Of a DNA stretch of 34,244 bases, positions 3-33,179 are shown piece by piece. How positions within the stretch are numbered: position 1 is the stretch's first letter; every line of letters begins with the position of its first letter. The translations under genes were made by a program, and so were the position numbers. Source of the DNA: Acidimicrobiales bacterium (lineage in GTDB: Bacteria > Actinomycetota > Acidimicrobiia > Acidimicrobiales > Ilumatobacteraceae); contig DASXAI010000158.1 in NCBI GenBank assembly GCA_036406775.1, positions 1 to 34,244 on the forward strand, read 5' to 3'. The notes beneath the pieces were generated by a model that was given only the letters and a program-made list of their open reading frames with translations, was not told the origin of the DNA and did no database searches.

Positions 3-3000
3 GGCAACATCTACATCGCCCATCAGGGCGTCGGCGACCGGGTGACCGTCTTGGATCCGAGCCTGAGCCAGATCGCTGAGATCCCGATCACGAACCCGTT
101 CACCCCGGTCGTCAACGAGACGACTCGGCGTGTGTACTTCGCGCAGACGTTCGGTGGCGGCATCGAGGTCGTCGACGCCACGACGAACACGAGGATCACC
201 ACGGTGCCGACCTCCGGCACCTCGACGATCGCCGTCGACGTCGACGAGACCCGCAACCTCGTCTACGCCGTCGATCGGTTCAACAACACGTTGTCGATCA
301 TGGACGGCGCCACCAACACGATCATCAACACGGTCGCGACCGGTCAGAACCCGCGCGATATTGCGGTCGACGAAGCGCTGGACAAGGTCTATGTGACCAA
401 TACCGACTCGAACTCTGTCTACGTCTACCAGGGGAGCACGGGCACACTCCTGACAGGATTCTCGGCTCCGGGCGCGACCGGCGTGGCGATCAATGGCCAG
501 GACCATCGCGCCTACGTGACGAAGTCCGACGGCACCGTCTCAGTCGTCGACACGAAATACGACGACGTCGTAGACGTGTTGAGCGGCGGTTCACCCGGGC
601 AGCCGTGGGACGTCGTCACGAACGCGGCCGCGCACCGTGCGTACTACACGAGTCTCAGCCAAGCCGTCACCGTGCTCGACGACCCGCCGGCCCCGGCCTC
701 CCAGATCGTCGGCGTGCCGAACAGCCCGGTCGCCGAGAGTGCCTTCGACGCGGCCACGGCCGGCCAGACGGTGTCGACCATCGACTTCGACGACGGGCTG
801 GTCTCCGATGGCCAACCGGTCGCGACCGCGTACAGCTCGCGCGGCGTCGAGTTCAGCGGCATCGTCGGACGATCGACGACCAGCTTCACGTACTCGCCTC
901 CCATGGGTGTCTGGCAGGCGAACTTCGGCGTAGGCCCGCCGGCCCAGATCGTGCTCAATTTCACTCAGCCAGTAGCGAGCTTCGGCTTCTACGCCAACGA
1001 TCTCGAGGCGGACGCGCGGTTCCGGCTCGTGTTCACGGACGGCAGCGAGGGCGCGTACGGCGCCCGGCCGCTCGGCGGGGGTGCCAACGCGTCGACCTTC
1101 TACGGCTTCACGATGGCGACGAACTCGATCTCGCAGCTGCGTATCTCGACGGGCGACTACTTCATCCTCGATCACCTGAAGCTCGGCCGGGCGACGCCTA
1201 CGTTCGAGTTGAGCGTGACCAGTGCGGGCTCGGGCGCCGGCTCGGTGGCGTCGACGCCCACCGGCATCGACTGCGGAGCGACCTGTTCGGCGGCCTTCGC
1301 CGAGGGCACGTCGGTCACGCTGACCGCGGCCGCCAACCCGGGTTCGTTGTTCTCCGGATGGTCGGGCGCGTGCTCCGGCGTCGGGCCGTGCGCGGTGACG
1401 ATGACGGGGCAACGGTCGGTCACCGCCACCTTCGACCCGGCGCCGATCGGAATCTCCGGCACCGTCGCGAACTCCAACGGCGAGCCCGTCGGCGGGATCG
1501 AGGTCGACGCCCTCGACAGCGGCTTCTCGTTCGTCGCCTTCGCCATCACCGACGCCGCAGGCCGCTACTCGATCGTCGGTCTGCCCCCGGGCAGCTATCG
1601 GGTGCAGTTCTCGGACGTCTCGGCGACGCGTCTGTACTCGACCCAGTACTACAACGAGCAGTCGAGCCCGGCCTCGGCGAACGTCGTCGTCCTCGCCCCG
1701 GGTGCGGCGGTCACGGGCATCGACGCCGTGCTGGTCTCCACGTCGATCTCGGGAACGGTCACCGACGCGGCGGCGGGCGTGCCGCTCGCGGGCATCGAGG
1801 TGGACGCCTTCATGGATGGCTCCAGCGTGGGCTACGCGTTCACCGATGCCGCCGGTCACTACACGATCAGCGGCCTGTCGCCTGGGACGTTCCAGCTCGA
1901 ATTCCAGGACCCGCGGCCCGTCCGCGTGTACAGCCCACAGTTCTACAACGGGCAGGCCTCCGAAGGCTCGGCCACGCCGGTCGCGGTCGCGTCGGGTGAG
2001 CATCTGACGGGCTACGACGCCGCCCTGGTGATCACGTCGATCTCCGGGACCCTGACGAACACGAACGGAGATCCGGTCGAGGGCATCCAGGTCGACGCCC
2101 TCGACAACGGTGACTCGAGCGTGGGCTTCGGCGTCACGGATGCCGCCGGCCACTACACGATGAGCGGGTTGTCACCCGGTTCGTACCGTGTCCTGTTCAC
2201 CGACACGTCCCAACCGGCGCGGTACAGCCCGCAGTACTACCTCGGGCGCGCCACGTTCGCGTCGGCCAACCTGGTGACGGTTGCATCCGGTCAGGTGGTG
2301 ACCGGCATCGACGATGTCCTCTCCAGCGTCGTCGTCACCGGCACGGTGACCGACAGCAACGGCGTGCCGCTCGCCGGCATCGACGTGTCAGTGCAGGGAT
2401 CGTCGGGGTGGGCGGGTGGAGCCTCGACCGACAGCGCCGGCCACTACCGGATCGAGGGCCTGCCGGCGGGCCAGTTCCATGTCGCCTTCCATGATCCGAG
2501 CCTCGAATACACACCGGACCGCGCCTCGTCGCCGTTCACGTTGACACTGGGTGGCGCGCCCAAGCTCGTCGACATGCAGTTCCCGGCGGTCAACGGTCCC
2601 GATGGCGACGGCGTCCCGGCCCGGACCGAGAATGGAGCGCCGAACAACGGCGACGGAAACGCCGACGGCATCGCCGATGCGACACAAGCCAACGTGACGT
2701 CCCTCCCCGATGCCGGCAACGACGCCTATGTCACCATCGCGAGCCCCGCGGGCACCGCACTCGTCCAAGTCGATGCCCTCCCGCTCTCCCTGCCTGCGCC
2801 GGCGGGTGACTTTCCCGTGGGCCTGCTGGCCTTCCGGGTCGACGGCGTCACGCCAGGGGCCTCGGCTGCGGTCCAGGTATTCCTGCCGTCGGGGGCGGCT
2901 CCGAACGCGTTCTGGAAGTTCCAGCACGGCGCGTACAGCCAGTTCCCCGACGCGGCGGTCAACGGCAGTGTCGTGACGCTGAGCCTTCAGGACGGTGGTC

Positions 3001-12743: not shown

Positions 12744-13457
<714 letters not shown>

Positions 13458-16306: not shown

Positions 16307-19300
16307 TCAGACGTCTGACACGGGCGCCGCGGCGCCGTACCGCACGATGACTTCGGTCGGTGTCAGTCGCTGGCCCCGCGCCAAGGCTTGGGAGTAGTCG
16401 CGCGCGCCGAGCGCGTCACGCAGCCTGGCCGCCAGCGTGTCGAGGGCTCGATCAGACTGCGGCGAGCGTTTCGGTGCGCTCATTCGCGCTCGGACGGCGG
16501 CGGCGGACCCGAGCAACTCGGCCGCGTCGCGATCGTCCCCAGAGGCGGCCGATGCCTCTGCCATACCCTCCAGCGCGTCGGCGATGGCGGACGGCTGCCC
16601 GAGATCGGTGGCCGTCCGCAACGCCCGCCGATGATGCACCAGCGCCCCGGCGACGCTGCCCTTGACGACGAGCGCCCGGCCCGCCTCCGTGAGCGCGGCG
16701 GCCAGGCCTTGGTTCCATCCGGTCGGCTCGAGGATGTCGATGGACTCTCCGATCAAGCCGAGCGCGTCGTCGACCCTGCCGACACGCAGCGCCGCCGCGG
16801 CGAGCTCCTTGAGGATCCAACCGACGAAGCACGGGTCGCCGGCGCGTTCGGCATGCCGGCGTGAACGTTCGAGCAACTCCACCGCGCCTGCTTCATCACC
16901 CTCGTCGGCACTCGTGACGGCGCGCCAGAGCAGACCCCACGCGAGGCCCCAGTCGTCGTTCCGGCTCGTGGCGAGGGCGATCGCCTCGTCCTGGCGGGTG
17001 GCCGCGGCGTCCAGATCCCCGAGCCACCGGTCGTTCATCCCGAGATAGACGAGCGCCACCACACTCTCCTCGGGTGTCCCGAGCTCGCGCCACGCCGTCA
17101 CCGCTCGCTGCAGCAGTGCTTGGGCCTCGACGACGTCGAGGACACCCACATGGATCCCGGTGAGCTCGAGCAGCCGCGCCTTCAAGGGCGCGTCGATCTC
17201 GACGACGTCAACGGCCCGTGTGAGCCATCGGACGGCTTCCGGGTTCTCACCTTCGAGGGCCCAATACCAACCGAGCGACGCCGCGAGCTCGGCTCCCAGG
17301 GCCCGGTCGCCACCGGACCAGCACCACTCGAGGGCAGCCCGCATGTTGGGCATCTGTCGGCGCAGGCGCGCGAGGGTCGGCTGTTGCTCCGGGCCGCGCA
17401 ACCTGGCGTCCGCTTCGGTCGCATGAGCCGTCACCCATCGAGCCATCCGATCGAACGTGGCGTCGCTATCGGCCGGCTGCTCCTCGAGCGCCGTTGCCGC
17501 GTACGCCCGCAACGAGTCGAGCATCCGGTAGCTGTCGTCGCCGTCGGCGACGACGAGCGAACGTCCGACCATCGAGGTGAGCAGGTCGAGCGGATCGGAG
17601 TCGAGTCCGTGACCGGCGACGACAGCGGCGGCCGGCAGGCTGAACCGTCCGGCGAAGACGCTTACGCGGCGAAAGAACGCTCGTTCATCGGCATCGAGGA
17701 GATCGATGCTCCACGCGATCGTGGCGCGGAGTGACTGCTGGCGGCGCTCGCCGGCTCGCCCAGGACGGCGGAGAACAGCGAACCGGTCGTCGAGCCGCTC
17801 GAGGATCGCGGGTGGCGACAGGACCGCGGTCCTGGCCGCCGCGAGCTCGATCGCCAGCGGCAGACCGTCGAGGCGGCGGCAGATGTCGGCGACGGCGGCG
17901 ACGTTCGACGGGTCGAGCTCGAAGCCGGGCCGAACCGCTCGTGCCCGCTCGACGAACAACGTGACAGCGTCGCTGTCGCGCACCTCCTCGAAGGGCGCGT
18001 CGTGGTAGGGCAGGCCAAGCGGTGGAACCGGCCACGCCACCTCGCCTGCGATGCCGAGCGCTTCGCGGCTGGTCGCGAGGATGTGCAGCGACGGGCAATC
18101 GCGGAGCAAACGGTGCGCCACCGACGCACACACGTCGAGGAGGTGCTCGCAGGTGTCGAGCACGAGGAGAGCGGCGCGATGACCAATGTGAAACGTCACG
18201 GCTTCGAGCGGATCCGGCCCCGACATCACGCCGAGGGCGCGAGCGACCTCGAGCGGAACGACGCTGGGGTCGGAGACGTCGCCGAGCTCCACCAACCACG
18301 CGGTACCGTGTTCCGCATCGGCGTGAGCGACGGCGAGCGCCAGCCGAGTCTTGCCCATCCCACCGGGTCCGGTGAGTGTGACCAGCCGATCGCGGCCCAC
18401 CGCGGCGCGCACACGCGCCACCTCATTCCCGCGGCCTACGAGGCGGGTCGTGGTCGCGGGCAAGGCCGCGCGCCGCGTGCCACGCGACGGTGAGGATCCT
18501 CCATCGGGCCCGTCGGCGATCCCGTGACGCGCGGCAGTCGGGGGCGGGGTCCAGTCGAGTTCGGAGCGTTGCTCCAGCACGGCGAGTCGCAGCGCCTGGA
18601 GCTCGCGACCCGGTTCGATGCCGAGCTCGTCGACCAGGTGCTGTCGGGCCTCGTCGAACGCGCGCAGCGCTTCCGCCTGCCGGCCCGAACGGTACAAGGC
18701 CAATACGAGCTGGGCCCGGAACCGCTCGCGGAGCGGGAAGTCGGCCACGAGCTGGCGCAGCAGCGCGACGGCGCTGTCGTGCTCGCCCAGGGCCAGACGG
18801 GCTTCGACCGTGTGCTCGAGTGCGGTGGCCCGCAGTTCGTAGAGCCGCTGGACCTCCGCGTCCACGAAGGGCTCGTAGGCGACGTCTTGAAACGGCTCGC
18901 CGCGCCACAGCGCGAGGGCGTCGCCGAGTTGGTCGAGTGCCGTTCGCGCCGACTCCCAGGCGGGCTGCTCGAGGCGTCGGCCGGCGGCGGCAACCGCCGC
19001 TTCGAACCGCGCCGCATCGATCGCTTCCGCCGGGACGTCGAGGACGTACCCGCCGCCGATCGTGCGCAGCGCGGGTGCCGGCCCGTCGGACGGCAGATCA
19101 AGTGCCTTGCGCAGGTACGAGATGTTCACCTGGAGCGCGTTGGCGGCGTTTCCCGGGAGGTCGTCGCGCCACAACTGCTCGATGAGGACGTCGGCGGCGA
19201 CGGCGTGCCCCGCATGGAGCAGCAGCGAGCTCAGGGCCGTCCGAGGCCGGCCCCGTCGTAGCGGCACCACGGCCCCGGCCCGGCGCACCTCCAGGGGACC

Positions 19301-19321
19301 GAGGACGGCGAACTCCAACAC
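16307..19321 (-). CDS. AfsR/SARP-family regulator: OmpR-type winged helix + BTAD + NB-ARC/STAND P-loop ATPase + TPR
   Basis: N-terminus LEFAVLGPLEVRRAG...ALQVNISYLRKAL, then a BTAD region (ALALWRGEPFQDVAYEPFVDAEVQRLYELR), a P-loop (LTGPGGMGKTRLA), and a TPR-like helical C-terminus. GTG start at 19321. Confidence 0.9.
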   Translation of the reverse strand: MLEFAVLGPLEVRRAGAVVPLRRGRPRTALSSLLLHAGHAVAADVLIEQLWRDDLPGNAANALQVNISYLRKALDLPSDGPAPALRTIGGGYVLDVPAEAIDAARFEAAVAAAGRRLEQPAWESARTALDQLGDALALWRGEPFQDVAYEPFVDAEVQRLYELRATALEHTVEARLALGEHDSAVALLRQLVADFPLRERFRAQLVLALYRSGRQAEALRAFDEARQHLVDELGIEPGRELQALRLAVLEQRSELDWTPPPTAARHGIADGPDGGSSPSRGTRRAALPATTTRLVGRGNEVARVRAAVGRDRLVTLTGPGGMGKTRLALAVAHADAEHGTAWLVELGDVSDPSVVPLEVARALGVMSGPDPLEAVTFHIGHRAALLVLDTCEHLLDVCASVAHRLLRDCPSLHILATSREALGIAGEVAWPVPPLGLPYHDAPFEEVRDSDAVTLFVERARAVRPGFELDPSNVAAVADICRRLDGLPLAIELAAARTAVLSPPAILERLDDRFAVLRRPGRAGERRQQSLRATIAWSIDLLDADERAFFRRVSVFAGRFSLPAAAVVAGHGLDSDPLDLLTSMVGRSLVVADGDDSYRMLDSLRAYAATALEEQPADSDATFDRMARWVTAHATEADARLRGPEQQPTLARLRRQMPNMRAALEWCWSGGDRALGAELAASLGWYWALEGENPEAVRWLTRAVDVVEIDAPLKARLLELTGIHVGVLDVVEAQALLQRAVTAWRELGTPEESVVALVYLGMNDRWLGDLDAAATRQDEAIALATSRNDDWGLAWGLLWRAVTSADEGDEAGAVELLERSRRHAERAGDPCFVGWILKELAAAALRVGRVDDALGLIGESIDILEPTGWNQGLAAALTEAGRALVVKGSVAGALVHHRRALRTATDLGQPSAIADALEGMAEASAASGDDRDAAELLGSAAAVRARMSAPKRSPQSDRALDTLAARLRDALGARDYSQALARGQRLTPTEVIVRYGAAAPVSDV

Positions 19322-19358
19322 CGGCGAGGCTACCGCCGCGACGGATGACCTTCGTGGG

Positions 19359-22300
19359 TCAGGCGTTCGCGGTCGTGGTGGTCGTGCTCTCCGCGGGTGC
19401 GGCCGTGACGGTGGTGCTGGTGGCGATCGACGCCGCCTGCGCCGCCAGTTGATAGGCCTGGTTGATCTTGGTCTGGTACGTGCCGAGGTCGCCGTTCTTC
19501 AAGGCCGTCTGGGCGTCGGCGTACGCCTGGTTGGCCTGCTGCAGGAGCTGCTCGATGTTGGGAACCGCACCGGGAGCCAACGTGGTGGCGGGCGGCGGTG
19601 AGGTCGAGGGACCGGGAGCGGCGGTCGTCGCCGGCGCCGTAGTCGTCGCGCCGTTGCCATCGCCGCTCGGCGTGGCCTCAGGCGGCGTGATGACGCCGCC
19701 GCCGACCACCGTGCCGAGATCGAGCTGCACGCCGAACGCTTGCTGCAGCGCGTCCTCGAGCGAGGCACCGAGGTAGCTCGACTGCCCGTACGTCAACGAC
19801 ACCTGCCGCACGACCGGCACCGCGGTCTGGCCGGTCGACTGGACGTACCACGTGCGGACGTACATGAGGTTGTTGCCGATCGGGAGGATCTGCTCGTCGC
19901 CGAACGTCACCCGCGAGCCAGCCTGGTCGATGAGCGTCAACTGTTGGGCGAACTGAGCCTTCATCTGCGAGTCGGCCAAGGACGGGCCCGGTGGCAACGG
20001 ATTGTTCAATCGATAGACGCGTAACTTCCCGTAGTCGGATGGATCGCTCGACACGGTCATGAACGCCGACAACGTCTTCAACGAGTCGTCGTCGGAGAAG
20101 GGAACGAAGGAACGCATCGAAACGAACTCGAGCTGGCTCGACCCCGGTTGCACCATCAGCGTGTAGTACGGCGGCACGCGCGACTCCCGGGTGCTGGGGA
20201 GAACCGCGCCGGGAACCACCGAATTGGCGGCGACGGCGGCGGCCCGCGACTCCTGCTCCTTCGGCGGGTTCTGCGCCACGTTCCAGGCGTCGCTGCGCTG
20301 GTAGAAGTCGCCCGGATCCTGGATGTGGTAGCGGCCCCACACGTTGGTCTGGACCCGGAACAGATCGTCGGGGTAGCGGAAGTGGGCCTTCAACTCGGCC
20401 GGCGCTTGGTCTCCCGGCGTGAACAGCTTGGGGAAGGCCTTCGACCAGGCCCGGACGAGCGGATCGCTCTGGTCGATCACATAGAACGTGACGTCTCCGT
20501 TGTAGGCATCGACGACGGCCTTGACCGAGTTGCGCACGTAGTTGAACCGGTGGTCGAGGCCACTGCCCGACGGCAACTGGTCGGTGTCGGCCCGCTGCGC
20601 GTACGGATACTGATCCGTGGTGGTGTAGCCGTCGATCACGAACTTGAGCTGCCCGTTCACGATCACCGGATACGGGTTGCTGTCGAAGTCGAGGAACGGC
20701 GCCAGCAGGTGGACACGGCTCCGCACGTCGCGCACGTAGAGGATGCGTGACTGGCCGGTGATGAGGCCCGAGCTGAAGAGGTTGATCTCACCGAAGCGAA
20801 GAGCGAAGGCGATGCGCCGGACGGTGGAGCCCATGCTGACGCCGCCGGTGCCCGTGTAGCTCACCTGCTGGTCCTGGCCCGATGCGCTGTAGGAGATCTC
20901 GCTGCGCTTGGTGGCGACGACGGCGTAGTCGCTCAGCTTCTCGCCGAAGTACACGGCCGGCTGCTCGAGGTACGGCGCCGTGTTCGACTGCGTCGTCGGG
21001 TCGAGGAAGTTCGGCTGGCCGGTGTTCGTTACCTGGCTGCCGGGCGCCAAGGCCACCCCGTAGCCGTGGGTGTAGGCGAGGTGCCGGTTCTCCCACGTGT
21101 TGCCGGGCAGGCCGGTGGGGTTCAGCTCTCGGGCGGCCAGCACCACCTGTTGCTCGCGGCCGTCGACCTGGTAGCGGTCGACGTCGAGCGAGTCGATCTG
21201 GTAGTAGCCGCGGAGCGCCTGGAGCTTCTGGTACGTGCTGGCCATCGCCTCGGTGTCGATGAGGCGGACGTTCTGCAACGTCTCCTGATTGGGCGCCAAT
21301 TCGGACGATTCGATCGGATCCTGTGTGTACAGGATCTCCTCCACGTTGCTGAGACCCATCGCCGCGCGCGTAGCCGCGATGTTGCGCTCGATGTAGGGCC
21401 GCTCCTTCGTCGACTCCGCCGGCTGCACCTGGAAGCGCTGGACGAAGGCGGGGTAGGCGGCTCCGGCCACGACGGCGACGAGCCCCCACAGGCCCACGGC
21501 GATCACCGGTAAGCGCCATCCGCGCTGCCACACGTTGATGATCAGCAGGACCGCGGCCAGCAAGGAGATGAGGAAGAGGAGGTTGATCGCCGGCAGTTGG
21601 GCGTTGACGTCGGTGTAGGTGGCGCCGTCGACGACGCCGCGAGTCGACGTCACGAGCTTGTAACGCTGGAGCCAGTACCCGGCCGCCTTCAACAGGGCGA
21701 GGATCGCCAGCAGGACGGACAGGTGCAGCTTCACCTGCGGGGTGACTCGCCGGCCCTGCACCTGTAGGCGGATCCCGCCGTTCAGGTAATGGGCCACCGC
21801 CGTGACGACGAGGATGATGACCAGCGCCGCAAACAGCCAGTCGACGATGAACGTCAGGAACGGCAGCTTGAAGACGTAGAACCCGATGTCGACGCCGAAC
21901 TCGGCGTCCTTCTGGCCGAACGACACGCTGTGGGTGAAGAGGAGCCAGTCCTTCCACTGGCTCGACACCGGGATACCGGCGACCAGTCCGAACAGCAGAC
22001 CGATGCTGATGCGGAAGAGCCAGGCCCGCCGGCCCACGATCTGCTGGTAGCGCTCGATGAACTGCTCCTCGGGCCCTGGGGCGCGGGTGCGGGGCGCCAG
22101 CCGGTCAGCGATCCAGAGGTTGAGGACCAGCAGCCCGGCGAACAGCACGGTGAAGATGGCGGCGAGGGCGATCTTGGCGCCGAGGACGCCCCAGAAGACG
22201 TCGGTCTGACCGAGGGCGTCGTACCAGAGCTCGTCGGTGTAGAAGCCGGCGATCCCCCGTGCTGACAGGAACAGCAGGACGACGAGGACGACGGCGGCGA

Positions 22301-22376
22301 TGAGGAGGATCCGCCCTCGGTTCGACAACCGGCGTCGGCGCCGCTTGCGCTGCGGCAGCTCCGAGGGCACTCGCAC
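19359..22376 (-). CDS. UPF0182-family polytopic membrane protein (Rv3193c-like)
   Basis: RKRRRRRLSNRGRILLIAAVVLVVLL, then FYTDELWYDALGQTDVFWGVLGAKI and multiple TM segments in the first ~300 aa, followed by a large extracytoplasmic domain. This layout is typical of UPF0182. The Thr/Pro/Ala-rich C-terminal tail is lineage-specific. Confidence 0.88.
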   Translation of the reverse strand: MRVPSELPQRKRRRRRLSNRGRILLIAAVVLVVLLFLSARGIAGFYTDELWYDALGQTDVFWGVLGAKIALAAIFTVLFAGLLVLNLWIADRLAPRTRAPGPEEQFIERYQQIVGRRAWLFRISIGLLFGLVAGIPVSSQWKDWLLFTHSVSFGQKDAEFGVDIGFYVFKLPFLTFIVDWLFAALVIILVVTAVAHYLNGGIRLQVQGRRVTPQVKLHLSVLLAILALLKAAGYWLQRYKLVTSTRGVVDGATYTDVNAQLPAINLLFLISLLAAVLLIINVWQRGWRLPVIAVGLWGLVAVVAGAAYPAFVQRFQVQPAESTKERPYIERNIAATRAAMGLSNVEEILYTQDPIESSELAPNQETLQNVRLIDTEAMASTYQKLQALRGYYQIDSLDVDRYQVDGREQQVVLAARELNPTGLPGNTWENRHLAYTHGYGVALAPGSQVTNTGQPNFLDPTTQSNTAPYLEQPAVYFGEKLSDYAVVATKRSEISYSASGQDQQVSYTGTGGVSMGSTVRRIAFALRFGEINLFSSGLITGQSRILYVRDVRSRVHLLAPFLDFDSNPYPVIVNGQLKFVIDGYTTTDQYPYAQRADTDQLPSGSGLDHRFNYVRNSVKAVVDAYNGDVTFYVIDQSDPLVRAWSKAFPKLFTPGDQAPAELKAHFRYPDDLFRVQTNVWGRYHIQDPGDFYQRSDAWNVAQNPPKEQESRAAAVAANSVVPGAVLPSTRESRVPPYYTLMVQPGSSQLEFVSMRSFVPFSDDDSLKTLSAFMTVSSDPSDYGKLRVYRLNNPLPPGPSLADSQMKAQFAQQLTLIDQAGSRVTFGDEQILPIGNNLMYVRTWYVQSTGQTAVPVVRQVSLTYGQSSYLGASLEDALQQAFGVQLDLGTVVGGGVITPPEATPSGDGNGATTTAPATTAAPGPSTSPPPATTLAPGAVPNIEQLLQQANQAYADAQTALKNGDLGTYQTKINQAYQLAAQAASIATSTTVTAAPAESTTTTTANA

Positions 22377-22387
22377 GGCGGGCGAGG

Positions 22388-24085
22388 CTAGCCCTCAGGT
22401 ACGGCGATTCCGCAGCGGCACCCCGGGTGCGCGGGCGCGTGGCAGTGGCCGGTCGGGAAGGGCTGACCAGCCAGAATGACGCCGGCCAACGCGTTGTCGT
22501 CGGCGTCGGGGCACATCGGCCCCTCAGGGTCGACGACCGAGCGGATGGGCGTGCCGGCGGCGAGGGCGTCGTACGCGCCGCGGCCGTGGGCGACGAGCAC
22601 GAGATGGGCGGCGATTTCGTCGGCGCGCTGCGTCCGCCACTCGCGGTAACCGGCCCGCAGCGTGGCACCGGCCTCGACGGCGTCACCGCCGGCGTCCTCG
22701 AGCGCTTTGGCCAGGCGCTCCCGTAACGGCACCACGAACTCGGCCGTGACATCGTCGAGCACCTGTTGCTGCACCTCGCTCGAGGGCACGTCCCGGTCCG
22801 GGCCGACCGAGGCGGCGCCGGCGAGGGCAGCCGCCCGCACATCGGCGGTGATGGCGGAGCGATAGCGCTCGGCGTGGTCGGCCTCGACGCCGACGAGGGC
22901 GTCGAGGTGGGCGACGTCGTCGGGCGTCTTGGCTCGGCGCAGGGCGTCGAGCACCTCGTTCTGCTCGTTGGTGAGGGCCCGCTTCAGGCTGCGGGCCATC
23001 GACCGTTGGATCGGGTCGAGGGCGCCGGCCCGGTCGACGAGGTAGGCCGCGTCGGGGTCGAGGGCTTCCAGCTCCGGCTCGGCCTCGGGCTCGATCTCCG
23101 TCTGCTCATCGCTTGTGTCGGGTTCCGGGGCGGTTTCCGCACCATCGGGCGCCACTGGCGTGGAGTGGGCGGTGGCCGGGCCGGCGGCGCGGAGCTTGGC
23201 GAAGAGATCGTCGACGCTGTCACGCTGATCCGGCTCGGCCGGGGCGTCGGAGTCGAGCTCGCCTGCATACGTGAGAGCCGGCCCCTCACCCAGGTGGATC
23301 GCCACCGCCGGCTCGCCCTCGCGTGTGTCGGGTTCTGGGGCGGTTTGCGCACCAACGGGCGCCACAGGCGGGAAATGGGGCACGGCTTCGGCGGCGTCGG
23401 CGGCGACGGCGGCCACGGCCTCGTCGACGGTCTCGACCTCGGAGGTGTCGGAGGGATCGGGGGCGGCGGCGCGCAGATCGGCGACGATGTCGTCGGCGGT
23501 GCGGCCGGCCTCTTCGAAGACGGCGATGAGCCGGTCGCGGTCGGCGCGCAGGCGAGCGAGCTGCGACCGTCCGAGGTCGCGGCGCCGGGCCAGGTCGGTG
23601 AGCATGCGATCCCGGACGGCCCGGGCCTCGGCCACCATCTGGCGACCCTCCTGCTTGGCCGCCTCGATCGCGGCGGCGCTGTCGGTGGCGGCTTCCTGGC
23701 GCATCCGGACGGCGTCGAGCGTCGCCTCTTCGCGCCGCTGCGTGGCCTCGTCCTGGGCCTCGCGCAGCAGCCGCTCGGCGCCCTCCTCGGCCTTGGCCTT
23801 CATCTGCGTGGCCGCCTCGCGCGCCGTCGACAGGACCCGCGCCGCCTCCTCGCCGAGGAGATCGGCCACCATGCCCTCGTCGAGCGCGGTGCCTTCGGAA
23901 CGTAGGGCCGCCAGCTCGTCGGCGAGCCGTGTGTTCTCGTCCTGCAACCGGCGCACCTCGCCGGCGAGGCGATCGAGCAACGACCGGACCTCGTCGCGGT
24001 CGTAACCGCGGCGGTGGATGCTGAAGTCGGCACCGGCGATCGACGCCGGCGACGTCGTGTCAACGCGCGACGGAGTCATGACCAT
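22388..24085 (-). CDS. DivIVA-domain protein with an acidic repeat linker and a phage Mu-F/SPP1-gp7-like C-terminal domain
   Basis: N-terminal DivIVA signature ADFSIHRRGYDRDEVRSLLDRLAGEVRRLQDEN plus a long coiled coil. The C-terminus ...RADEIAAH...MCPDADDNALAGVILAGQPFPTGHCHAPAHPGCRCGIAVPEG resembles the ...C..C..L.G....F....PP.HPNCRC ending of the Phage_Mu_F domain. Start is ATG 24085 or 24079. Confidence 0.8.
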   Translation of the reverse strand: MVMTPSRVDTTSPASIAGADFSIHRRGYDRDEVRSLLDRLAGEVRRLQDENTRLADELAALRSEGTALDEGMVADLLGEEAARVLSTAREAATQMKAKAEEGAERLLREAQDEATQRREEATLDAVRMRQEAATDSAAAIEAAKQEGRQMVAEARAVRDRMLTDLARRRDLGRSQLARLRADRDRLIAVFEEAGRTADDIVADLRAAAPDPSDTSEVETVDEAVAAVAADAAEAVPHFPPVAPVGAQTAPEPDTREGEPAVAIHLGEGPALTYAGELDSDAPAEPDQRDSVDDLFAKLRAAGPATAHSTPVAPDGAETAPEPDTSDEQTEIEPEAEPELEALDPDAAYLVDRAGALDPIQRSMARSLKRALTNEQNEVLDALRRAKTPDDVAHLDALVGVEADHAERYRSAITADVRAAALAGAASVGPDRDVPSSEVQQQVLDDVTAEFVVPLRERLAKALEDAGGDAVEAGATLRAGYREWRTQRADEIAAHLVLVAHGRGAYDALAAGTPIRSVVDPEGPMCPDADDNALAGVILAGQPFPTGHCHAPAHPGCRCGIAVPEG

Positions 24086-29027: not shown

Positions 29028-30110
29028 GTGATCCTCGATTCGCTGGTCGTCGACGCCGGCGCCTTCGCCGAGCGGACGGGTTGGGTCGCCAAGCCCGAGG
29101 GCCTCTGCAAGGCCGAGATGTGCGTGCCGGCGCCCGGCGCCGATCGTGGCGACGGCACGTTGGACGTCGGCGTGGTAGCGGAGCGACTCCGGATGCCGCT
29201 CCTGCACGACGACACCTACGGCGTCTGGGCGCTGGGGCCGGAGTCCGGCGGCCGGGCGCTGGCGTCGGCCGAGGCCGCTGATCCCGAACTGATCACGGTC
29301 GACGGCAACCCGTTCAAGTTGTCGTCGCTCCACGGGCGCAAGGTGCTGCTCGTGGCGTGGGCCAGTTGGTGAGGCTGCCGCCTGAGCCTGCCCGGGTGGC
29401 AGGCACTGCACGCCGAGCTGTCGCCGCAAGGACTCACCGTCGTCACCGTCGCCCTCGACGTCAACCCTGACGACGCCCGGCCCTGGATCGCGGCGGCGGC
29501 ATTCACGCATCCGAGCCTCATCGACACGACCCACGTCACCGACGAGCTGTTCGGATTCATCAACGTGCCGATGGCGGTGTGGATCGACGAGCAGGGGATG
29601 CTGGTGCGGCCGGCCGAGCAAGCCGCCGTCGAGCGCAGCCCGCTGCGCGACGTCGAGATCCCCGACAACCTGCCGGACCGCCTGCACCAGATGCTGACGG
29701 AGGTCAAGCAGATCCACGACCCGTCAGACGACTATCGGTCCGCCCTCGTCGACTGGGTGACGAACGGCGCCGCCAGTCGCTTCGTGCTCACGCCCGACGA
29801 GGTCGTGGCCCGATCCGGTGACCGCCCGGTGGAGCACGCCCGCGCCGCCGCCGCCTTCGAGCTCGGCCAGCACCTGTGGCGCACGGTCGGCAACGACGCC
29901 GCCATTCCGTGGTGGCGGGAGGCGCATCGGCTGTTCCCCGACAACTGGACGTACAAGCGCCAGGCGTGGACGTTCGTCACCACGCCGCCGGGCGCCACCG
30001 AGCCCGACCTCATCCAGGGACCGAACGACGTGTACGAGGGCAACTGGCTCGACGACGTGCTCGCCGTCGGCGGAGGCGCCAACTACTACCGCCGCCCCGA
30101 CTTCAGCTAG
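29028..30110 (+). CDS. Candidate selenoprotein: ResA/TlpA-like thioredoxin-fold protein with in-frame UGA (Sec) at 29370-29372, motif W-A-S-W-U-G-C
   Basis: Track ORFs 29028..29372 and 29565..30110 share a frame. My translation of 29373-29564 shows no other stop. The TGA replaces the first redox Cys of the thioredoxin-fold motif (KVLLVAWASW*GCRLSLP...GLTVVTVALD). A SECIS-like hairpin follows. Confidence 0.7.
29386..29404 (+). promoter_or_regulatory. Candidate bacterial SECIS hairpin
   Basis: GCCUGCC-CGGGU-GGCAGGC: a perfect 7-bp stem with a 5-nt G-rich apical loop. The stem starts 13 nt after the UGA and the loop about 20 nt after it. Confidence 0.55.
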
Positions 30111-30141
30111 CTAGGGCGCCGGGCGAGGCCGACCTCAACGA

Positions 30142-30178
30142 GGCACGAAACTGCCCGCCTTCCGGGCAATTCCGTGCC
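30142..30178 (+). repeat. Nested-hairpin element, diverged copy D; possible terminator of the selenoprotein gene
   Basis: GGCACG-AAAC-TGCCCG ccttc CGGGCA-ATTC-CGTGCC. It has the same architecture as copies A-C and the same CGCC at the inner stem/loop junction. It lies 32 nt after the stop at 30110 and directly upstream of the -35 box. Confidence 0.5.
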
Positions 30179-30181
30179 CCC

Positions 30182-30210
30182 TTGCCTAGCGAACGTACGT
30201 TCGATATACT
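30182..30210 (+). promoter_or_regulatory. SigmaA-type promoter (TTGCCT-17-TATACT) with a perfect LexA/SOS box (CGAACGTACGTTCG, 30190-30203) in the spacer
   Basis: -35 TTGCCT at 30182-30187 and -10 TATACT at 30205-30210. A 14-bp perfect palindrome matches the Gram-positive/actinobacterial SOS-box core GAAC-N4-GTTC. GTG 30217 lies 6 nt after the -10, which implies a leaderless mRNA. Confidence 0.7.
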
Positions 30211-30216
30211 CGGGAC

Positions 30217-32226
30217 GTGCTGCGGTGGCGCACCGTCGAGGACGATCCGCAAGGGACGTTGTTCCGGGACGAGGAGCTGGTCGACCGGCATGTGGGCCGG
30301 GGCGAGTTCCGCGGCCTCGAGTTCTTCCACGTCCGCGCCCGGACTGTGATCAACCAGGTGCCGGCCTCGAGCCGCATGCCGTTCAGCCACACGATCAACG
30401 CCTACCGAGGTTGCAGCCATGCCTGTGTCTATTGCGTCCTCGGCGACACACCAGTGCTGATGGCGGACGGGACGGTGCGGCCGATCGTCGAGCTCGAGCC
30501 GGACGACGTAGTCGTCGGCACGGAACGCCACGGACGCTACCGCCGGTTCGTGCCGAGCCGCGTGTTGGATCGGTTCGCGAGCCGGCGAGAGGCCTATCGA
30601 GTGACGCTCGCCGACGGGACCGAGCTCGTCGCCAGCGGTGACCACCGTTTCCTTACCGGCCGGGGTTGGAAGCACGTCACAGGCGCAGAGCAGGGTGCCA
30701 GACGCCGACCCCACCTGACGTTGAACGATGAGCTCCTGGGCACGGGCGCCTTCGTTGCGCCGCCGGCCATCGACGCCGACTACCGACGCGGCTACCTGTC
30801 CGGAATGATCCGAGGCGACGGGCCCATCGGGCACTACGAGTACTCGTCGCGCCAGCGCCGAGACGTCTTCCACCGATTCCGTCTCGCCCTTGCTGACGAC
30901 GAAGCGTTGCTCCGCGCCCGAAACTACCTCGCGTCCTTTGGGGTGGAGACGGGCGAGTTCGCCTTCGGAGAAGGCAGTGAGACCCGCCGGCCGATGCGAG
31001 CGATCCGCTGCCAGAGCGCGGGCGCCGTGGCCAAGGTCGAGTCGCTCATCGCGTGGCCGGAGGCTCCGACCACGGCGTGGCGACGTGGATTCCTGGCCGG
31101 CATCTTCGACGCCGAGGGCAGCTACAGCCGCGGCATCCTGCGCATGTCGAACAAGGACCAGCGGATACTGGCCGAGATCGGGGGGTGCCTGATGTCGCTC
31201 GGCTTCCGCGTCGTGGTGGAGCCGGTACGTGCGAACGGCGTCTGCTGCCTACGTGTGCCCGGTGGGATCTGCGAACACATTCGCTTCTTCCACACCGTCG
31301 ATCCCGCCATCAGCCGAAAGCGCGCCATCGTCGGCCAGGCCATCAAGAACAAGGCCGACTTGCGGGTCAAGGCCGTCGAACCCGTCGGGCTCGAGCTTCC
31401 GATGTACGACATCACGACGACGACGGGTGACTTCATCGCCAACGGCGTGGTCAGCCACAACTGTTTCGCGCGGCCGACGCACGACTACCTGGGGTTCGGC
31501 ATCGGCGACGACTTCGACCGCAAGATCGTCGTGAAGGTCAACGCGGTCGAGCGCGTACGGGCCGAGCTGGCGTCGCCGCGGTGGGGTGGGCACGCCATCG
31601 CCATGGGCACCAACACCGACCCGTACCAGCGGGCCGAGGGCAAGTACCACCTGACGCAAGGCATCGTCGCCGCCCTCGGCGAGGCCGCCAACCCGTTCTC
31701 CATCCTCACCAAGTCGACGCTGATCCTGCGCGACCTCGATCTGTTGCAGGCGGCGGCCGTCCGCACCGACGTTCGCACCAGCTTCTCCATCGGCACCCTC
31801 GATCCCGACGTGTGGCGCCTCACCGAACCTGGCACGCCCCATCCCCGCCGACGCGTCGAGGCGGTGGCTCGACTGAACGAGGCCGGCATCCCGTGCGGCG
31901 TCCTCGTGGCGCCGGTGTTGCCCGGGCTGTCCGACCACGACGACCAACTGGCCGAAGTGGCGGAGGCCTGCGTCGACGCCGGGGCGACCTTCATCTCGGC
32001 GATGTACCTGCACCTGCGGCCCGGCGTGCGGGAGCACTGGATGCAGTGGATGCAGCGCGCCCTGCCCGATCGGGTGGCCGAGTACGAAGCGCGCTACGCG
32101 GGGCGCGCCTACCTCGGGTCGCGACAGCAGAAGGAGCTGGCGGCGCGGATGGACGGGATGGTGGCGGCGGCTCGACGCCGGGCCTCTCCCGTTTCACGCC
32201 AGAAAAACGACGCCCCACGTCGATAA
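30217..32226 (+). CDS. Radical SAM protein of the SplB/Rv2578c-like (DNA-repair-photolyase-like) family, interrupted by an intein
   Basis: Exteins: ...FSHTINAYRGCSHACVY | CFARPTHDYLGFGIGDDFDRKIVVKVNA...GTNTDPYQ...ILTKS. Joined, they restore the CxxxCxxC motif. The spliced product is predicted to be 326 aa. Confidence 0.9.
   Translation: MLRWRTVEDDPQGTLFRDEELVDRHVGRGEFRGLEFFHVRARTVINQVPASSRMPFSHTINAYRGCSHACVYCVLGDTPVLMADGTVRPIVELEPDDVVVGTERHGRYRRFVPSRVLDRFASRREAYRVTLADGTELVASGDHRFLTGRGWKHVTGAEQGARRRPHLTLNDELLGTGAFVAPPAIDADYRRGYLSGMIRGDGPIGHYEYSSRQRRDVFHRFRLALADDEALLRARNYLASFGVETGEFAFGEGSETRRPMRAIRCQSAGAVAKVESLIAWPEAPTTAWRRGFLAGIFDAEGSYSRGILRMSNKDQRILAEIGGCLMSLGFRVVVEPVRANGVCCLRVPGGICEHIRFFHTVDPAISRKRAIVGQAIKNKADLRVKAVEPVGLELPMYDITTTTGDFIANGVVSHNCFARPTHDYLGFGIGDDFDRKIVVKVNAVERVRAELASPRWGGHAIAMGTNTDPYQRAEGKYHLTQGIVAALGEAANPFSILTKSTLILRDLDLLQAAAVRTDVRTSFSIGTLDPDVWRLTEPGTPHPRRRVEAVARLNEAGIPCGVLVAPVLPGLSDHDDQLAEVAEACVDAGATFISAMYLHLRPGVREHWMQWMQRALPDRVAEYEARYAGRAYLGSRQQKELAARMDGMVAAARRRASPVSRQKNDAPRR
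30433..31461 (+). mobile_element. Intein (343 aa) with a LAGLIDADG homing-endonuclease domain
   Basis: Begins with Cys (CVLGDTPVLMADG, block A). Block B is LVASGDHRFLT. The two LAGLIDADG motifs are YLSGMIRGDG and FLAGIFDAEGS. It ends ...GDFIANGVVSHN, followed by the +1 Cys (CFARP). Confidence 0.9.
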
Positions 32227-32240
32227 ACCAGCGTGAAACG
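32190..32240 (+). repeat. Nested-hairpin element, copy B (contains the stop codon of the radical SAM gene)
   Basis: CGTTTCACGC cag AAAAA CGACG cccca CGTCG ATAAA cca GCGTGAAACG. It has a perfect 10-bp outer stem and a 5-bp inner stem. The TAA stop at 32224-32226 lies inside it. Confidence 0.75.
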
Positions 32241-32303
32241 GTGGGGCGAGGAGACCGGGCGCGACGAACCACTGGTCGACGGCACGCCGGTAGCGTGCTG
32301 GCG

Positions 32304-33179
32304 ATGGAGCACGTCCAGTGGTCCTCCCGTCCCACGCTGCACGATCCGTACCTGTTGGCCGCCTTCACGGGCTGGAACGACGCCGGCGACGCCGCCTCGT
32401 CGGCGATCCGGCACCTCATCGAGGTGTGGCGGGCCGAGAAGGTCGCCGCCATCGATCCGGAAGAGTTCTACGACTTCGGCACGACCCGGCCGCAGGTCCG
32501 CCTGGTCGACGGGCTCACCCGGGAGATCGTCTGGCCCACCAACGAACTGTGGGCGGCGTCGACCCCGGGCGGTGACGTCCTGCTCCTCGTCGGGGCCGAG
32601 CCCCAGCTGCGGTGGCGCACGTTCTGCGGCGAGATCACGGACATCGCCAAGGAGCAGCACGCCTCGCTGGTACTCACGCTGGGCGCCCTCCTCGCCGACG
32701 TCGTCCACTCCCGGCCGGTGTCGATGATCGGCACCGCCACCGACCAGGCTCTCATCGACCGTTTCCAACTGGCCCGCTCCCGCTACGAAGGACCCACCGG
32801 CATCCTCGGGGCGCTGAACGACGCCTGCAGCCGAGCCGGGCTCGCCTCGGCGTCGCTGTGGGCCGCCGTGCCCGCCTACGCACCCGGCATCGCGTCACCG
32901 AAGGCGGCGCTCGCCCTCGTCGAACGGGCGGCGGCCATCGTGGGGACACCGGCCGCGCCCGGTGCCCTCGATGCGGCGGTGACCGAGTACGAGACGGAGG
33001 TCGCCGAACTGGTCGCCAGTGACGACGATCTGGCCGGCTACGTGAGCCGGCTCGAGACCTACGCCGACGACGAGGATGAGGACGAGGAGGAACCGGCCGA
33101 CCCCGTCGCCGAGGACGCCACCGTGGAGCGGTTCGTGGAGGACGTCGAGCGCTTCCTGCGCGACCAGGGTCGGGACTGA
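32304..33179 (+). CDS. PAC2-family protein (proteasome-assembly-chaperone-2-like)
   Basis: MEHVQWSSRPTLHDPYLLAAFTGWNDAGDAASSAIRHL...EEFYDF...RP...GPTGILGAL...SLWAAVPAY, with an acidic C-terminal tail. This is the typical actinobacterial PAC2-family pattern. The portion of the track ORF upstream of 32304 is shadow overlapping the previous gene. Confidence 0.85.
   Translation: MEHVQWSSRPTLHDPYLLAAFTGWNDAGDAASSAIRHLIEVWRAEKVAAIDPEEFYDFGTTRPQVRLVDGLTREIVWPTNELWAASTPGGDVLLLVGAEPQLRWRTFCGEITDIAKEQHASLVLTLGALLADVVHSRPVSMIGTATDQALIDRFQLARSRYEGPTGILGALNDACSRAGLASASLWAAVPAYAPGIASPKAALALVERAAAIVGTPAAPGALDAAVTEYETEVAELVASDDDLAGYVSRLETYADDEDEDEEEPADPVAEDATVERFVEDVERFLRDQGRD

Follow-up and report, generated by a model that had tools for sequence, protein, structure and literature searches.

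A predicted splicing-competent class-1 intein with a LAGLIDADG endonuclease inside the CX3CX2C motif of an Rv2578c-type radical SAM protein from an Acidimicrobiales bacterium

The window analysed here, a 34,244-nucleotide stretch of DNA from an Acidimicrobiales bacterium, carries on its plus strand (30217-32226) a gene with a GTG start codon which encodes a precursor of 669 amino acids, followed by a stop codon, in which an Rv2578c-type radical SAM protein is interrupted by an intein. The N-extein (30217-30432, plus strand, residues 1-72) ends with C66-S-H-A-C70-V-Y72 and holds the first and second cluster cysteines (codons 30412-30414 and 30424-30426), Cys70 being position -3 counted from the intein. 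The whole intein (30433-31461, plus strand) comprises 343 amino acids, from Cys1 (TGC, 30433-30435) to Asn343 (AAC, 31459-31461), and corresponds to precursor residues 73-415; its open frame is uninterrupted by any stop over the 343 codons, and the boundaries given in the original prediction are exact to the base, from the Cys1 codon through the Asn codon. The C-extein (31462-32226, plus strand, residues 416-669 and the stop codon) opens with Cys416 (codon TGT, 31462-31464), which serves both as +1 nucleophile and as third cysteine of the CX3CX2C motif, and supplies the remainder of the radical SAM barrel. The junctions in the precursor read ...NAYRGCSHACVY/CVLGDTPVLMADG...GVVSHN/CFARPTHDY... 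(slashes mark the points of insertion), and four cysteines are located at the splice site, namely C66, C70 (-3), C73 (Cys1), and C416 (+1).

Three parts can be distinguished within the intein. The N-terminal splicing region (30433-30744, plus strand, intein residues 1-104) contains blocks A and B, the latter with S68-G-D-H71 (S68-x-x-H71) at 30634-30645. The LAGLIDADG homing-endonuclease domain (30745-31281, plus strand, intein residues 105-283; Pfam LAGLIDADG_3) contains motif 1, YLSGMIRGDG (30793-30822, intein residues 121-130, with the Asp129 codon at 30817-30819), and motif 2, FLAGIFDAEGS (31090-31122, intein residues 220-230, with the Glu228 codon at 31114-31116). The C-terminal part (31282-31461, plus strand, intein residues 284-343), which like the N-terminal region is kept in mini-inteins, contains blocks F and G (...MYD326ITTTTGDFIANGVVSH342N343), with His342-Asn343 followed by Cys+1. 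All of the motifs claimed originally (the N-terminal Cys, SGDH, the two LAGLIDADG motifs, the terminal HN, and the +1 Cys) are present. In an alignment of 52 homologues (mean column identity 46%), C1, H71, D129, E228, D326, H342, and N343 are invariant; the catalytic residues, whose loss the original prediction had taken as the sign of a degenerate insertion, are thus both present and conserved throughout the family. Block B carries Ser where Thr is more usual, and this substitution is probably tolerated, since S68 is nearly invariant in the same 52 homologues, which share no further conserved cysteine inside the intein. On the host side, C66 and C70 occur without exception in 56 intein-free homologues.

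Among the family profiles, NCBIfam NF038136, which is entitled "intein-containing Rv2578c family radical SAM protein" and models exactly the architecture of the window protein, was by far the best-scoring family for the precursor (673.3 bits, E=3.5e-202), with a score 27 bits short of its curated cut-off of 700. The spliced extein had NF038135 (Rv2578c family radical SAM protein) as its top family, at 395.5 bits against a cut-off of 430, the next being PA0069 at 252 bits. Because these scores lie just below the curated NCBIfam cut-offs, the window protein is a somewhat divergent member of NF038136, and its host a divergent member of NF038135 or a close sister of that equivalog. The insertion point of NF038136 matches as well: the intein alone aligns to model positions 76-334, and the best stretch of the spliced extein (residues 73-305) begins at model position 335, directly past the intein block. 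TIGR01445 (intein_Nterm) and TIGR01443 (intein_Cterm) both exceeded their cut-offs, as did Pfam LAGLIDADG_3 (28.4 vs 22.5) and Pfam Radical_SAM (PF04055; 54.9 bits vs 29.5, spanning residues 439-580), and Pfam Intein_splicing was under its cut-off (25.1 vs 35.8). A database search with the intein matched 2330 proteins at E<=1e-5, and, judging by these matches, the identification of the insert as an intein is far beyond chance.

The AlphaFold (AF2) model of the intein (pLDDT 95.4, pTM 0.90) had as its best Foldseek matches PI-PfuI (E=8e-16), the TliVMA intein, and PI-SceI, which share with it the two-domain arrangement of splicing and LAGLIDADG parts (E 8e-16 to 1e-12). The endonuclease domain resembles the free-standing endonuclease I-DmoI, on which it superposes with a target-normalised TM of 0.74-0.77 (about 0.75) and an rmsd of 3.3-4 A. 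These likenesses support a predicted fold composed of a splicing (HINT) domain and an I-DmoI-like pseudo-dimeric LAGLIDADG endonuclease. In sequence, however, the window intein is only 14-19% identical to PI-PfuI, PI-SceI, TliVMA, and I-DmoI, and with 343 amino acids it is shorter than the matched solved intein chains (361-537 residues); a PDB sequence search gave marginal matches alone for the intein and nothing meaningful for the spliced extein.

For the host enzyme, which the original prediction had described as an SplB/Rv2578c-like radical SAM protein, this description agrees with NF038135 and NF038136 being the top families and with the predicted fold, as the nearest solved fold to the model of an intein-free orthologue was spore photoproduct lyase (TM about 0.6, E=1e-6; Foldseek). 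The results thus support a Rv2578c/COG1533 ("SplB-like") radical SAM protein, COG1533 being annotated as "DNA repair photolyase". SplB (PDB 4FHC and related entries) and the host are both radical SAM enzymes; they differ in that their identity is 18% and that the host has no PDB relative by sequence. The host scored 17.8-20.6 bits with TIGR04070 (spore photoproduct lyase; cut-off 400) and 17 bits with Pfam SPL (PF20903; cut-off 27), and from the structural model it would be SPL-like in fold only.

Intein-free orthologues of 93% identity are contiguous over the junction (CSHACVY/CFARPTH), with no gap or overlap (alignment A1), and because they align contiguously through the insertion point the junction is a clean one. 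Their loci are syntenic with the window (ADH / 114-125 aa / 230 aa / rSAM / PAC2), and the flanking DNA differs from that of the empty site at synonymous positions only. The original expectations that the extein halves would join cleanly and that removal of the intein would recreate CSHACVYC are both borne out by these orthologues, with Cys+1 completing the CX3CX2C motif as C66-x3-C70-x2-C. Two of the orthologous loci, L001 and L002, were taken as intein-less candidate target alleles, and the site in L001 reads ...CACGCATGCGTCTAC/TGCTTTGCTCGGCCG.... Of the closest 120 extein homologues, 112 lack the intein, while in 7 others the same site is occupied by mini-inteins (142-164 aa) that differ in their deletion end-points; the mini-intein of locus L003 (164 aa) lacks exactly the endonuclease block 30745-31281. 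Full-length, mini, and empty alleles are all present in the Acidimicrobiia-like lineage of the window, and the empty and mini-intein alleles in sister lineages look like a homing cycle in progress. In comparison with L003, the splicing domain had a dN/dS of 0.18, and the exteins, at 0.09 to 0.10, are under strong purifying selection.

The same allele is widespread. Within the top 120 intein relatives, each one showing both junctions has CxxxCxx/C...SHN/C[FY]AR, and of 80 loci examined in other species, 77 have the same junctions within a single open frame around an intein of 339-352 aa. Same-site relatives were found in at least 590 species genomes, and the allele spans several phyla, among them Proteobacteria, Planctomycetota, Acidobacteriota, and Omnitrophota MAGs. 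Of the complete full-length inteins in the databases, the nearest is only 59% to 61% identical; apart from a single fragment of 93% identity (P0121), the databases contain no close full-length sister that would point to recent homing of the window copy. A close copy of the intein was absent from the phage and plasmid collections, in which the best matches were 27-35% identical and no vector was identified. The "radical SAM protein-like protein" of phage KX853510 was considered as the host of a parallel radical SAM intein and discarded, as this host protein lacks CX3CX2C and, by inspection of its sequence alone, looks like a SNF2-type helicase.

Such a distribution bears on whether the endonuclease is still at work. 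A splicing intein whose endonuclease is no longer active in homing, that is, a fixed and immobile insert becoming a mini-intein, would fit with the deletion of this domain in close relatives, with the distance to the closest complete full-length relatives, and with the composition of the gene: the GC3 of the intein (0.85) is near that of the N-extein (0.875) and C-extein (0.89), so the intein is fully ameliorated, which indicates long residence. We nevertheless consider an immobile insert rather unlikely, because D129 and E228 along with many framework residues are invariant over the 52 diverged homologues, the I-DmoI-like domain is modelled at high confidence, the 343 codons are free of stops, and the spread over several phyla argues for ongoing horizontal movement.

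Upstream of the gene, a sigma-70-type promoter (30182-30210, plus strand) consists of TTGCCT, a 17-nt spacer, and TATACT, and it is the single promoter-like site within 29900-32500, for which shuffled sequence gave a mean of 0.1. As the -10 element ends 6 nt upstream of the GTG start, the mRNA is probably leaderless; the orthologous loci L001 and L003 have the same arrangement of -35, 17 nt, -10, 6-7 nt, and start. Inside the promoter spacer lies a LexA (SOS) box-like palindrome, CGAACGTACGTTCG (30190-30203, no strand assigned), which is the sole exact CGAAC-N4-GTTCG in the 34-kb window, the actinobacterial LexA consensus being TCGAAC-N4-GTTCGA. The palindrome is kept in the upstream regions of L001, L002, and L003, which are elsewhere divergent, and of 74 intein-bearing loci of other species, 48 have GAAC-N4-GTTC at the equivalent place; these make up 48 of a total of 55 palindromes of this kind in 305 kb. 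In M. tuberculosis, a LexA ChIP-seq site of the RecA-dependent class was reported at Rv2578c/Rv2579 (PMC3381160). The host gene in the source organism may thus be under LexA control, as we infer from the placement and conservation of the palindrome. A hairpin at about 30141-30178, in the gap that separates the upstream gene from the promoter, was also considered as a terminator and rejected, since its folding was no better than that of shuffled sequence (z = -1.2).

Taken together, the window very probably encodes a class-1 intein which is splicing-competent, carries an intact two-motif LAGLIDADG endonuclease, and separates Tyr72 from the third cysteine of CX3CX2C. In the source organism, the precursor would be expected to splice by standard intein chemistry, in which the Tyr72 carbonyl would be attacked by Cys73 (Cys1) in an N-S acyl shift, the N-extein would be moved onto Cys416 (+1) by trans-thioesterification, cyclisation of Asn415 would free the 343-aa intein, and an S-N shift would then form the native Tyr-Cys bond. 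The spliced product would be a 326-aa enzyme with C66-x3-C70-x2-C73, and it alone would have the cluster loop joined to the barrel. The two splice junctions sit side by side in inteins generally. The original statement that the unspliced protein is unable to bind the cluster is too firm, because the precursor keeps C66-x3-C70-x2-C73 with the Cys1 of the intein in third place. The freed intein, or the precursor itself, would be predicted to cleave alleles without the intein at the DNA encoding ...ACVY/CFARP..., and recombinational repair of the cut allele would copy the intein in. Under a LexA-boxed and probably leaderless promoter, the enzyme and the endonuclease would thus be expected to be made together upon DNA damage. 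The element is best regarded as a selfish insert, long resident and horizontally mobile, which may persist because the insertion site can neither be altered nor be imprecisely deleted by the host.

A conditional switch, in which the intein is gated by redox state, metal, or the cluster, would be a compatible addition to this selfish, mobile insert. Under oxidising conditions, a Cys70-Cys73 or Cys73-Cys416 disulfide would block splicing; alternatively, Zn/Fe or an Fe-S cluster bound to C66/C70/C73/C416 of the precursor would do so, and an oxygen-labile, SOS-induced enzyme would then mature only where its [4Fe-4S] cluster can survive. Cysteines occupy positions -3, 1, and +1 among the four at the splice site, and all of them are invariant, in line with such a switch. 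A precedent comes from Pyrococcus abyssi MoaA, itself a radical SAM enzyme, whose intein is reportedly inserted inside CX3CX2C as well. In that intein, whose host is described as an oxygen-sensitive enzyme, a native Cys-3/Cys1 disulfide stops the first splicing step until conditions become reducing (Callahan et al. 2011, reviewed in PMC3922620, PMC10663303), and a Cys1-Cys+1 disulfide governs the Pab PolII intein (PMC3922620). The redox control put forward in the original prediction is not a new idea, as a redox trap of this kind has been published for the intein of P. abyssi MoaA. The window protein shares with it the C(-3)-x-x-C1 spacing, and the two differ in that MoaA belongs to an archaeal host, another enzyme family, and an unrelated intein lineage. 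Conditional splicing has also been studied by experiment in the RecA and SufB inteins of actinobacteria. Against these points, the invariance of the splice-site cysteines is demanded by the host motif itself, and they are conserved for the cluster of the host and not necessarily for control; the intein conserves no additional cysteine; its absence from 112 of the 120 closest orthologues implies that any such control is dispensable; and the sequence does not tell regulation apart from a side effect of the landing site. We therefore hold the switch to be rather improbable. Its fuller form, in which a disulfide, metal, or Fe-S at C66/C70/C73/C416 would gate an SOS-induced radical SAM enzyme after translation, and in which co-expression of the endonuclease from a LexA-controlled promoter would time homing to RecA-dependent recombination, seems quite doubtful; were it true, oxidative stress or metal imbalance would hold splicing back, and reducing, iron-replete conditions would release it. 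Finally, a degenerate, non-splicing insertion that leaves the host gene effectively a pseudogene is highly improbable, since the NCBIfam scores slightly under the curated cut-offs are outweighed by the presence and invariance of all residues for the four splicing steps, the low extein dN/dS, the intact reading frame, and the conserved promoter and SOS box.

With regard to known systems, the insertion of this intein is already known, being catalogued and present in hundreds of bacterial species, and the original prediction is a correct but ordinary find. The catalogued SplB/NF038136 inteins share with the window copy the host family, the insertion point ...C-x-Y / C-F-A-R, and a LAGLIDADG architecture of about 340-350 aa, and named members of the NF038136 type such as P0223 of Micromonospora profundi have identical junction strings. 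The window copy differs from the complete catalogued full-length members in its identity of at most 59-61% and its 673 bits against 700. The mycobacterial RecA, DnaB, and SufB inteins, for which stress- and metal-sensitive splicing has been studied, are like that of the window in being actinobacterial, in having a Cys1 nucleophile, and in residing in DNA-repair or Fe-S-related hosts, RecA belonging to the SOS regulon like the Rv2578c host; they differ in their host proteins and insertion sites. To our knowledge, none of these three splits a cluster-ligand motif with the +1 nucleophile as a ligand. The belief that the insertion point was uncharacterised stands in part: the searched literature yielded no experimental study of an Rv2578c/SplB intein, but the site is catalogued in NCBIfam NF038136, and SplB (COG1533) is listed as an intein host, with 48 inteins in Actinobacteria, by Novikova et al. 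2016 (PMC4760082), a survey whose main text names the host protein and does not discuss a position inside CX3CX2C.

The discovery value is thus small, as the allele is common, is included in the NCBI annotation rules, and was counted in the main bioinformatic intein survey. Its value lies instead in a natural system in which Cys1, Cys+1, and the -3 Cys are, or replace, ligands of an oxygen-sensitive [4Fe-4S] cluster, and in which the host gene also appears to be wired to the DNA-damage response. The lineage around the window supplies full-length, mini-intein, and empty alleles of one gene for comparison, and to the example of P. abyssi MoaA this family adds a convenient second one with which to ask if an intein in a redox-sensitive enzyme acts as a sensor or is no more than a parasite.

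The precursor is encoded by one long open reading frame of 669 codons with a GTG start (30217..32226, + strand), whose translation reads ...NAYRGC66SHAC70VY72/C73VLGDTPVLMADG...GVVSH414N415/C416FARPTHDY.... The intein insert of 343 aa occupies 30433-31461 on the + strand, with the Cys1 codon at 30433-30435 and the Asn codon at 31459-31461; the interval originally predicted was the intein to the base, and the codon positions agreed. In the Pfam search of the precursor, Radical_SAM and LAGLIDADG_3 exceeded their cut-offs and Intein_splicing scored under its own, and the NCBIfam models intein_Nterm and intein_Cterm both exceeded theirs. In an alignment of 52 intein sequences with a mean column identity of 46%, Cys1, His71 (block B), Asp326 (block F) and His342-Asn343 (block G) were invariant (numbering from Cys1), as were Asp129 and Glu228, the closing acidic residues of the two LAGLIDADG motifs. 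The AlphaFold2 model built from this alignment had a pLDDT of 95.4 and a pTM of 0.90; its first Foldseek matches in the PDB were intein-encoded homing endonucleases, namely PI-PfuI (8e-16), the TliVMA intein and PI-SceI, and its central domain superposes on I-DmoI, a free-standing two-motif enzyme, with a TM score of about 0.75. In comparison with the orthologous locus L003, which carries a mini-intein, dN/dS was 0.18 in the splicing domain that both inteins share and 0.09 in the exteins, and the window intein is compositionally at home, since its GC3 of 0.85 is near that of the N-extein (0.875) and the C-extein (0.89). Judged from its sequence and predicted fold, the insert is a class-1 intein of canonical type in which a LAGLIDADG endonuclease is nested, and no feature looks degenerate.

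With the conceptually spliced extein as query, 7999 relatives were recovered, the nearest of which, P0001 and P0002 (316 aa, 93% identical), are without the insert and read CSHACVY/CFARPTH in the extein alignment, with no gap or overlap where the junction falls. The window and the locus encoding P0002 (L001) share the order of zinc ADH (-), an ORF of 114-125 aa, a gene of roughly 230 aa (appearing in the window as a 181-aa ORF only), radical SAM and PAC2, and the two proteins are therefore true orthologues. In the 45 nt flanking the insertion on each side, synonymous changes are the only differences from the empty site. A failure of the extein halves to align contiguously had been named beforehand as grounds for rejecting the intein; the halves aligned contiguously with the intein-free orthologues. 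Cys416, the Cys+1, is the third cysteine of CX3CX2C as proposed, its position being invariant together with C66 and C70 in 56 intein-free homologues. Overall, the exact coordinates, the clean junction and the invariant splicing residues confirmed the original observation and supported its interpretation in essentials.

By standard intein chemistry, Cys73 would undergo an N-S acyl shift at Tyr72, the acyl group would pass to Cys416, Asn415 would cyclise, and an S-N shift would restore the Tyr-Cys bond, giving an enzyme of 326 aa whose CX3CX2C loop is intact and joined to the barrel. The sequence does not bear out the claim that an unspliced precursor would be unable to bind the cluster, because the intein itself begins with Cys immediately ahead of the third ligand, and the precursor thus keeps C66-x3-C70-x2-C73 with the intein Cys1 in third place. 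The two splice junctions are adjacent in inteins generally. The C(-3)-x-x-C1 spacing of the window protein is that of the P. abyssi MoaA intein, in which a Cys-3/Cys1 disulfide blocks splicing until conditions become reducing (PMC3922620, PMC10663303). The proposed redox switch is a reasonable idea, but this precedent for it is already published, and the window intein is unlikely to be a genuine redox or metal gate.

The best family for the spliced protein was NF038135 (Rv2578c family), with 395 bits against a cut-off of 430, followed by PA0069, and a PDB sequence search with the spliced extein found no related solved structure. A model of an intein-free orthologue (pLDDT 85) was nearest to spore photoproduct lyase (TM about 0.6, 18% identity), and the spliced host fell far under the cut-offs of the SPL family models. 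The label "SplB-like" therefore holds for the fold, but not for membership or function.

The top whole-protein NCBIfam match was NF038136, "intein-containing Rv2578c family radical SAM protein" (E=3.5e-202, 673 bits), in which the intein fills model positions 76-334, agreeing with the window junctions; database proteins, for example from Micromonospora profundi, bear this name. Novikova et al. (2016, PMC4760082) name SplB (COG1533) as one of the more frequent intein hosts in bacteria and count 48 inteins in it, every one from Actinobacteria. The insertion point had been put forward as not known to be characterised; the allele is catalogued in these two sources, and the part that stands is that our literature search found no paper with an experiment on this intein or discussing its place in the cluster motif. 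The window intein is a further, moderately divergent example of an allele that is both catalogued and widespread.

With the intein alone as query, 2330 proteins were matched at E<=1e-5; of those that are complete, the best are 52-59% identical over the full length, and CxxxCxx/C...SHN/C[F/Y]AR junctions were found in every both-ended entry among the top 120 relatives. Among the 120 closest extein homologues, the intein was absent from 112, and 7 had mini-inteins of 142-164 aa in exactly the same position; the end-points of their internal deletions differ, and these appear to be independent endonuclease losses. Residues 105-283 of the window intein are precisely those missing from the L003 mini-intein (MAG GCA_046725105.1), and in P0005 the end of the endonuclease region, HFHTVDPAI..., is still present. 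Near-identical host genes are either empty or carry a mini-intein (L001, L003, P0003, P0004, P0005, P0009, P0024, P0065, P0115), and full-length, mini and empty alleles in such hosts are the expected stages of a homing cycle, i.e., invasion, fixation, endonuclease decay and loss. The predicted target of the endonuclease in the empty allele is the DNA encoding ACVY/CFARP, and after cleavage recombination would copy the intein in; constraint of this target by the cluster motif would account for the allele's persistence and wide host range. When one genome was scanned for each species, a relative of this intein turned up in at least 590 genomes. Among the best 80 were cultured Micromonospora, Geodermatophilus, Modestobacter, Blastococcus and Planosporangium, together with numerous MAGs of Solirubrobacterales and Acidimicrobiia and a small number labelled as Proteobacteria, Planctomycetota, Acidobacteriota or Omnitrophota; 77 of the 80 loci had the same junctions in a single open frame. 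Many database entries for the allele (P0125, P0145, P0151, P0223 and others, some NCBI-named) lack the N-extein or have out-of-frame tails, many being labelled "LAGLIDADG family homing endonuclease, partial", suggesting that automated gene calling often gives these genes a wrong start or cuts them short.

Related inteins were also seen in other hosts. On the Streptomyces sp. P9-2B-2 linear plasmid NZ_CP129127.1 (L085; record 81504-82508, ORF at locus 1327-3171), whose gene table lists no gene across the match, a LAGLIDADG intein 30% identical to ours interrupts a different three-Cys protein, ...WNPTTGCDRVSKGCDN/C...ICTHN/CYALTLAK (C-x6-C-x2-/C), again immediately ahead of the third Cys. There is a weak match of its C-extein to "radical SAM mobile pair protein A", and next to it lies a gene for a "three-Cys-motif partner protein TcmP". 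These positions suggest that the third Cys of cluster-type motifs is a recurrent target of this intein lineage. Virus Rctr197k (L084; KX853510.1, record 19211-22480) encodes a full-length, 27% identical intein (...QRY/C...TKN/C...) in a 1090-aa "radical SAM protein-like protein"; the host is without CX3CX2C and by eye resembles an SNF2-type helicase, and the annotation appears wrong.

Between radical SAM and PAC2, L003 (5539-7951) holds two genes missing from the window and L001, for an EACC1-domain protein (125 aa) and a caspase-like Peptidase_C14 protein (676 aa), which look like a small conflict or defence-type island. No phage- or plasmid-like genes adjoin the intein gene in the window, the remainder of which looks like ordinary actinobacterial chromosome; features were listed at 42-5030 (+), 16307-19321 (-), 19359-22376 (-), 22388-24085 (-) and 13384-13457 (-), and the contents include a 1662-aa surface-type protein with fn3, CarboxypepD_reg and SdrD_B repeats, a 1003-aa SARP/BTAD-AAA-TPR regulator, a UPF0182 protein, a DivIVA-domain protein and one tRNA.

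Directly 5' of the host gene lies the only promoter-like site of the region (TTGCCT-17-TATACT, 30182-30210, + strand), and its spacer contains a perfect LexA-box-like palindrome, CGAACGTACGTTCG (30190-30203), the only exact match in the window. Because the -10 element ends 6 nt ahead of the GTG, the sequence suggests a leaderless mRNA, and the transcript may be SOS-repressed. An imperfect inverted repeat, GGCACGAAACTGCCCG...CGGGCAATTCCGTGCC (30141-30178), between the stop codon of the preceding gene and the promoter, shows no folding advantage over shuffled sequence (z = -1.2) and has no T-tract. The palindrome and promoter layout are kept in L001, L002 and L003 despite unconserved surrounding sequence, and GAAC-N4-GTTC occurs at the same place in 48 of 74 intein-bearing genes at other species' loci; the 305 kb examined contained 55 palindromes of this kind in total, so that these 48 are nearly the full set. 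In M. tuberculosis, ChIP-seq places a LexA site of the RecA-dependent class in the Rv2578c/Rv2579 intergenic region (PMC3381160). Given this site and the conserved palindrome and layout, the host is very probably an SOS gene, which lends some support to its "DNA repair" label, and the endonuclease would therefore be co-induced by DNA damage. The remaining value of the finding is that it offers an attractive candidate system for conditional protein splicing in a probably SOS-controlled Fe-S enzyme.
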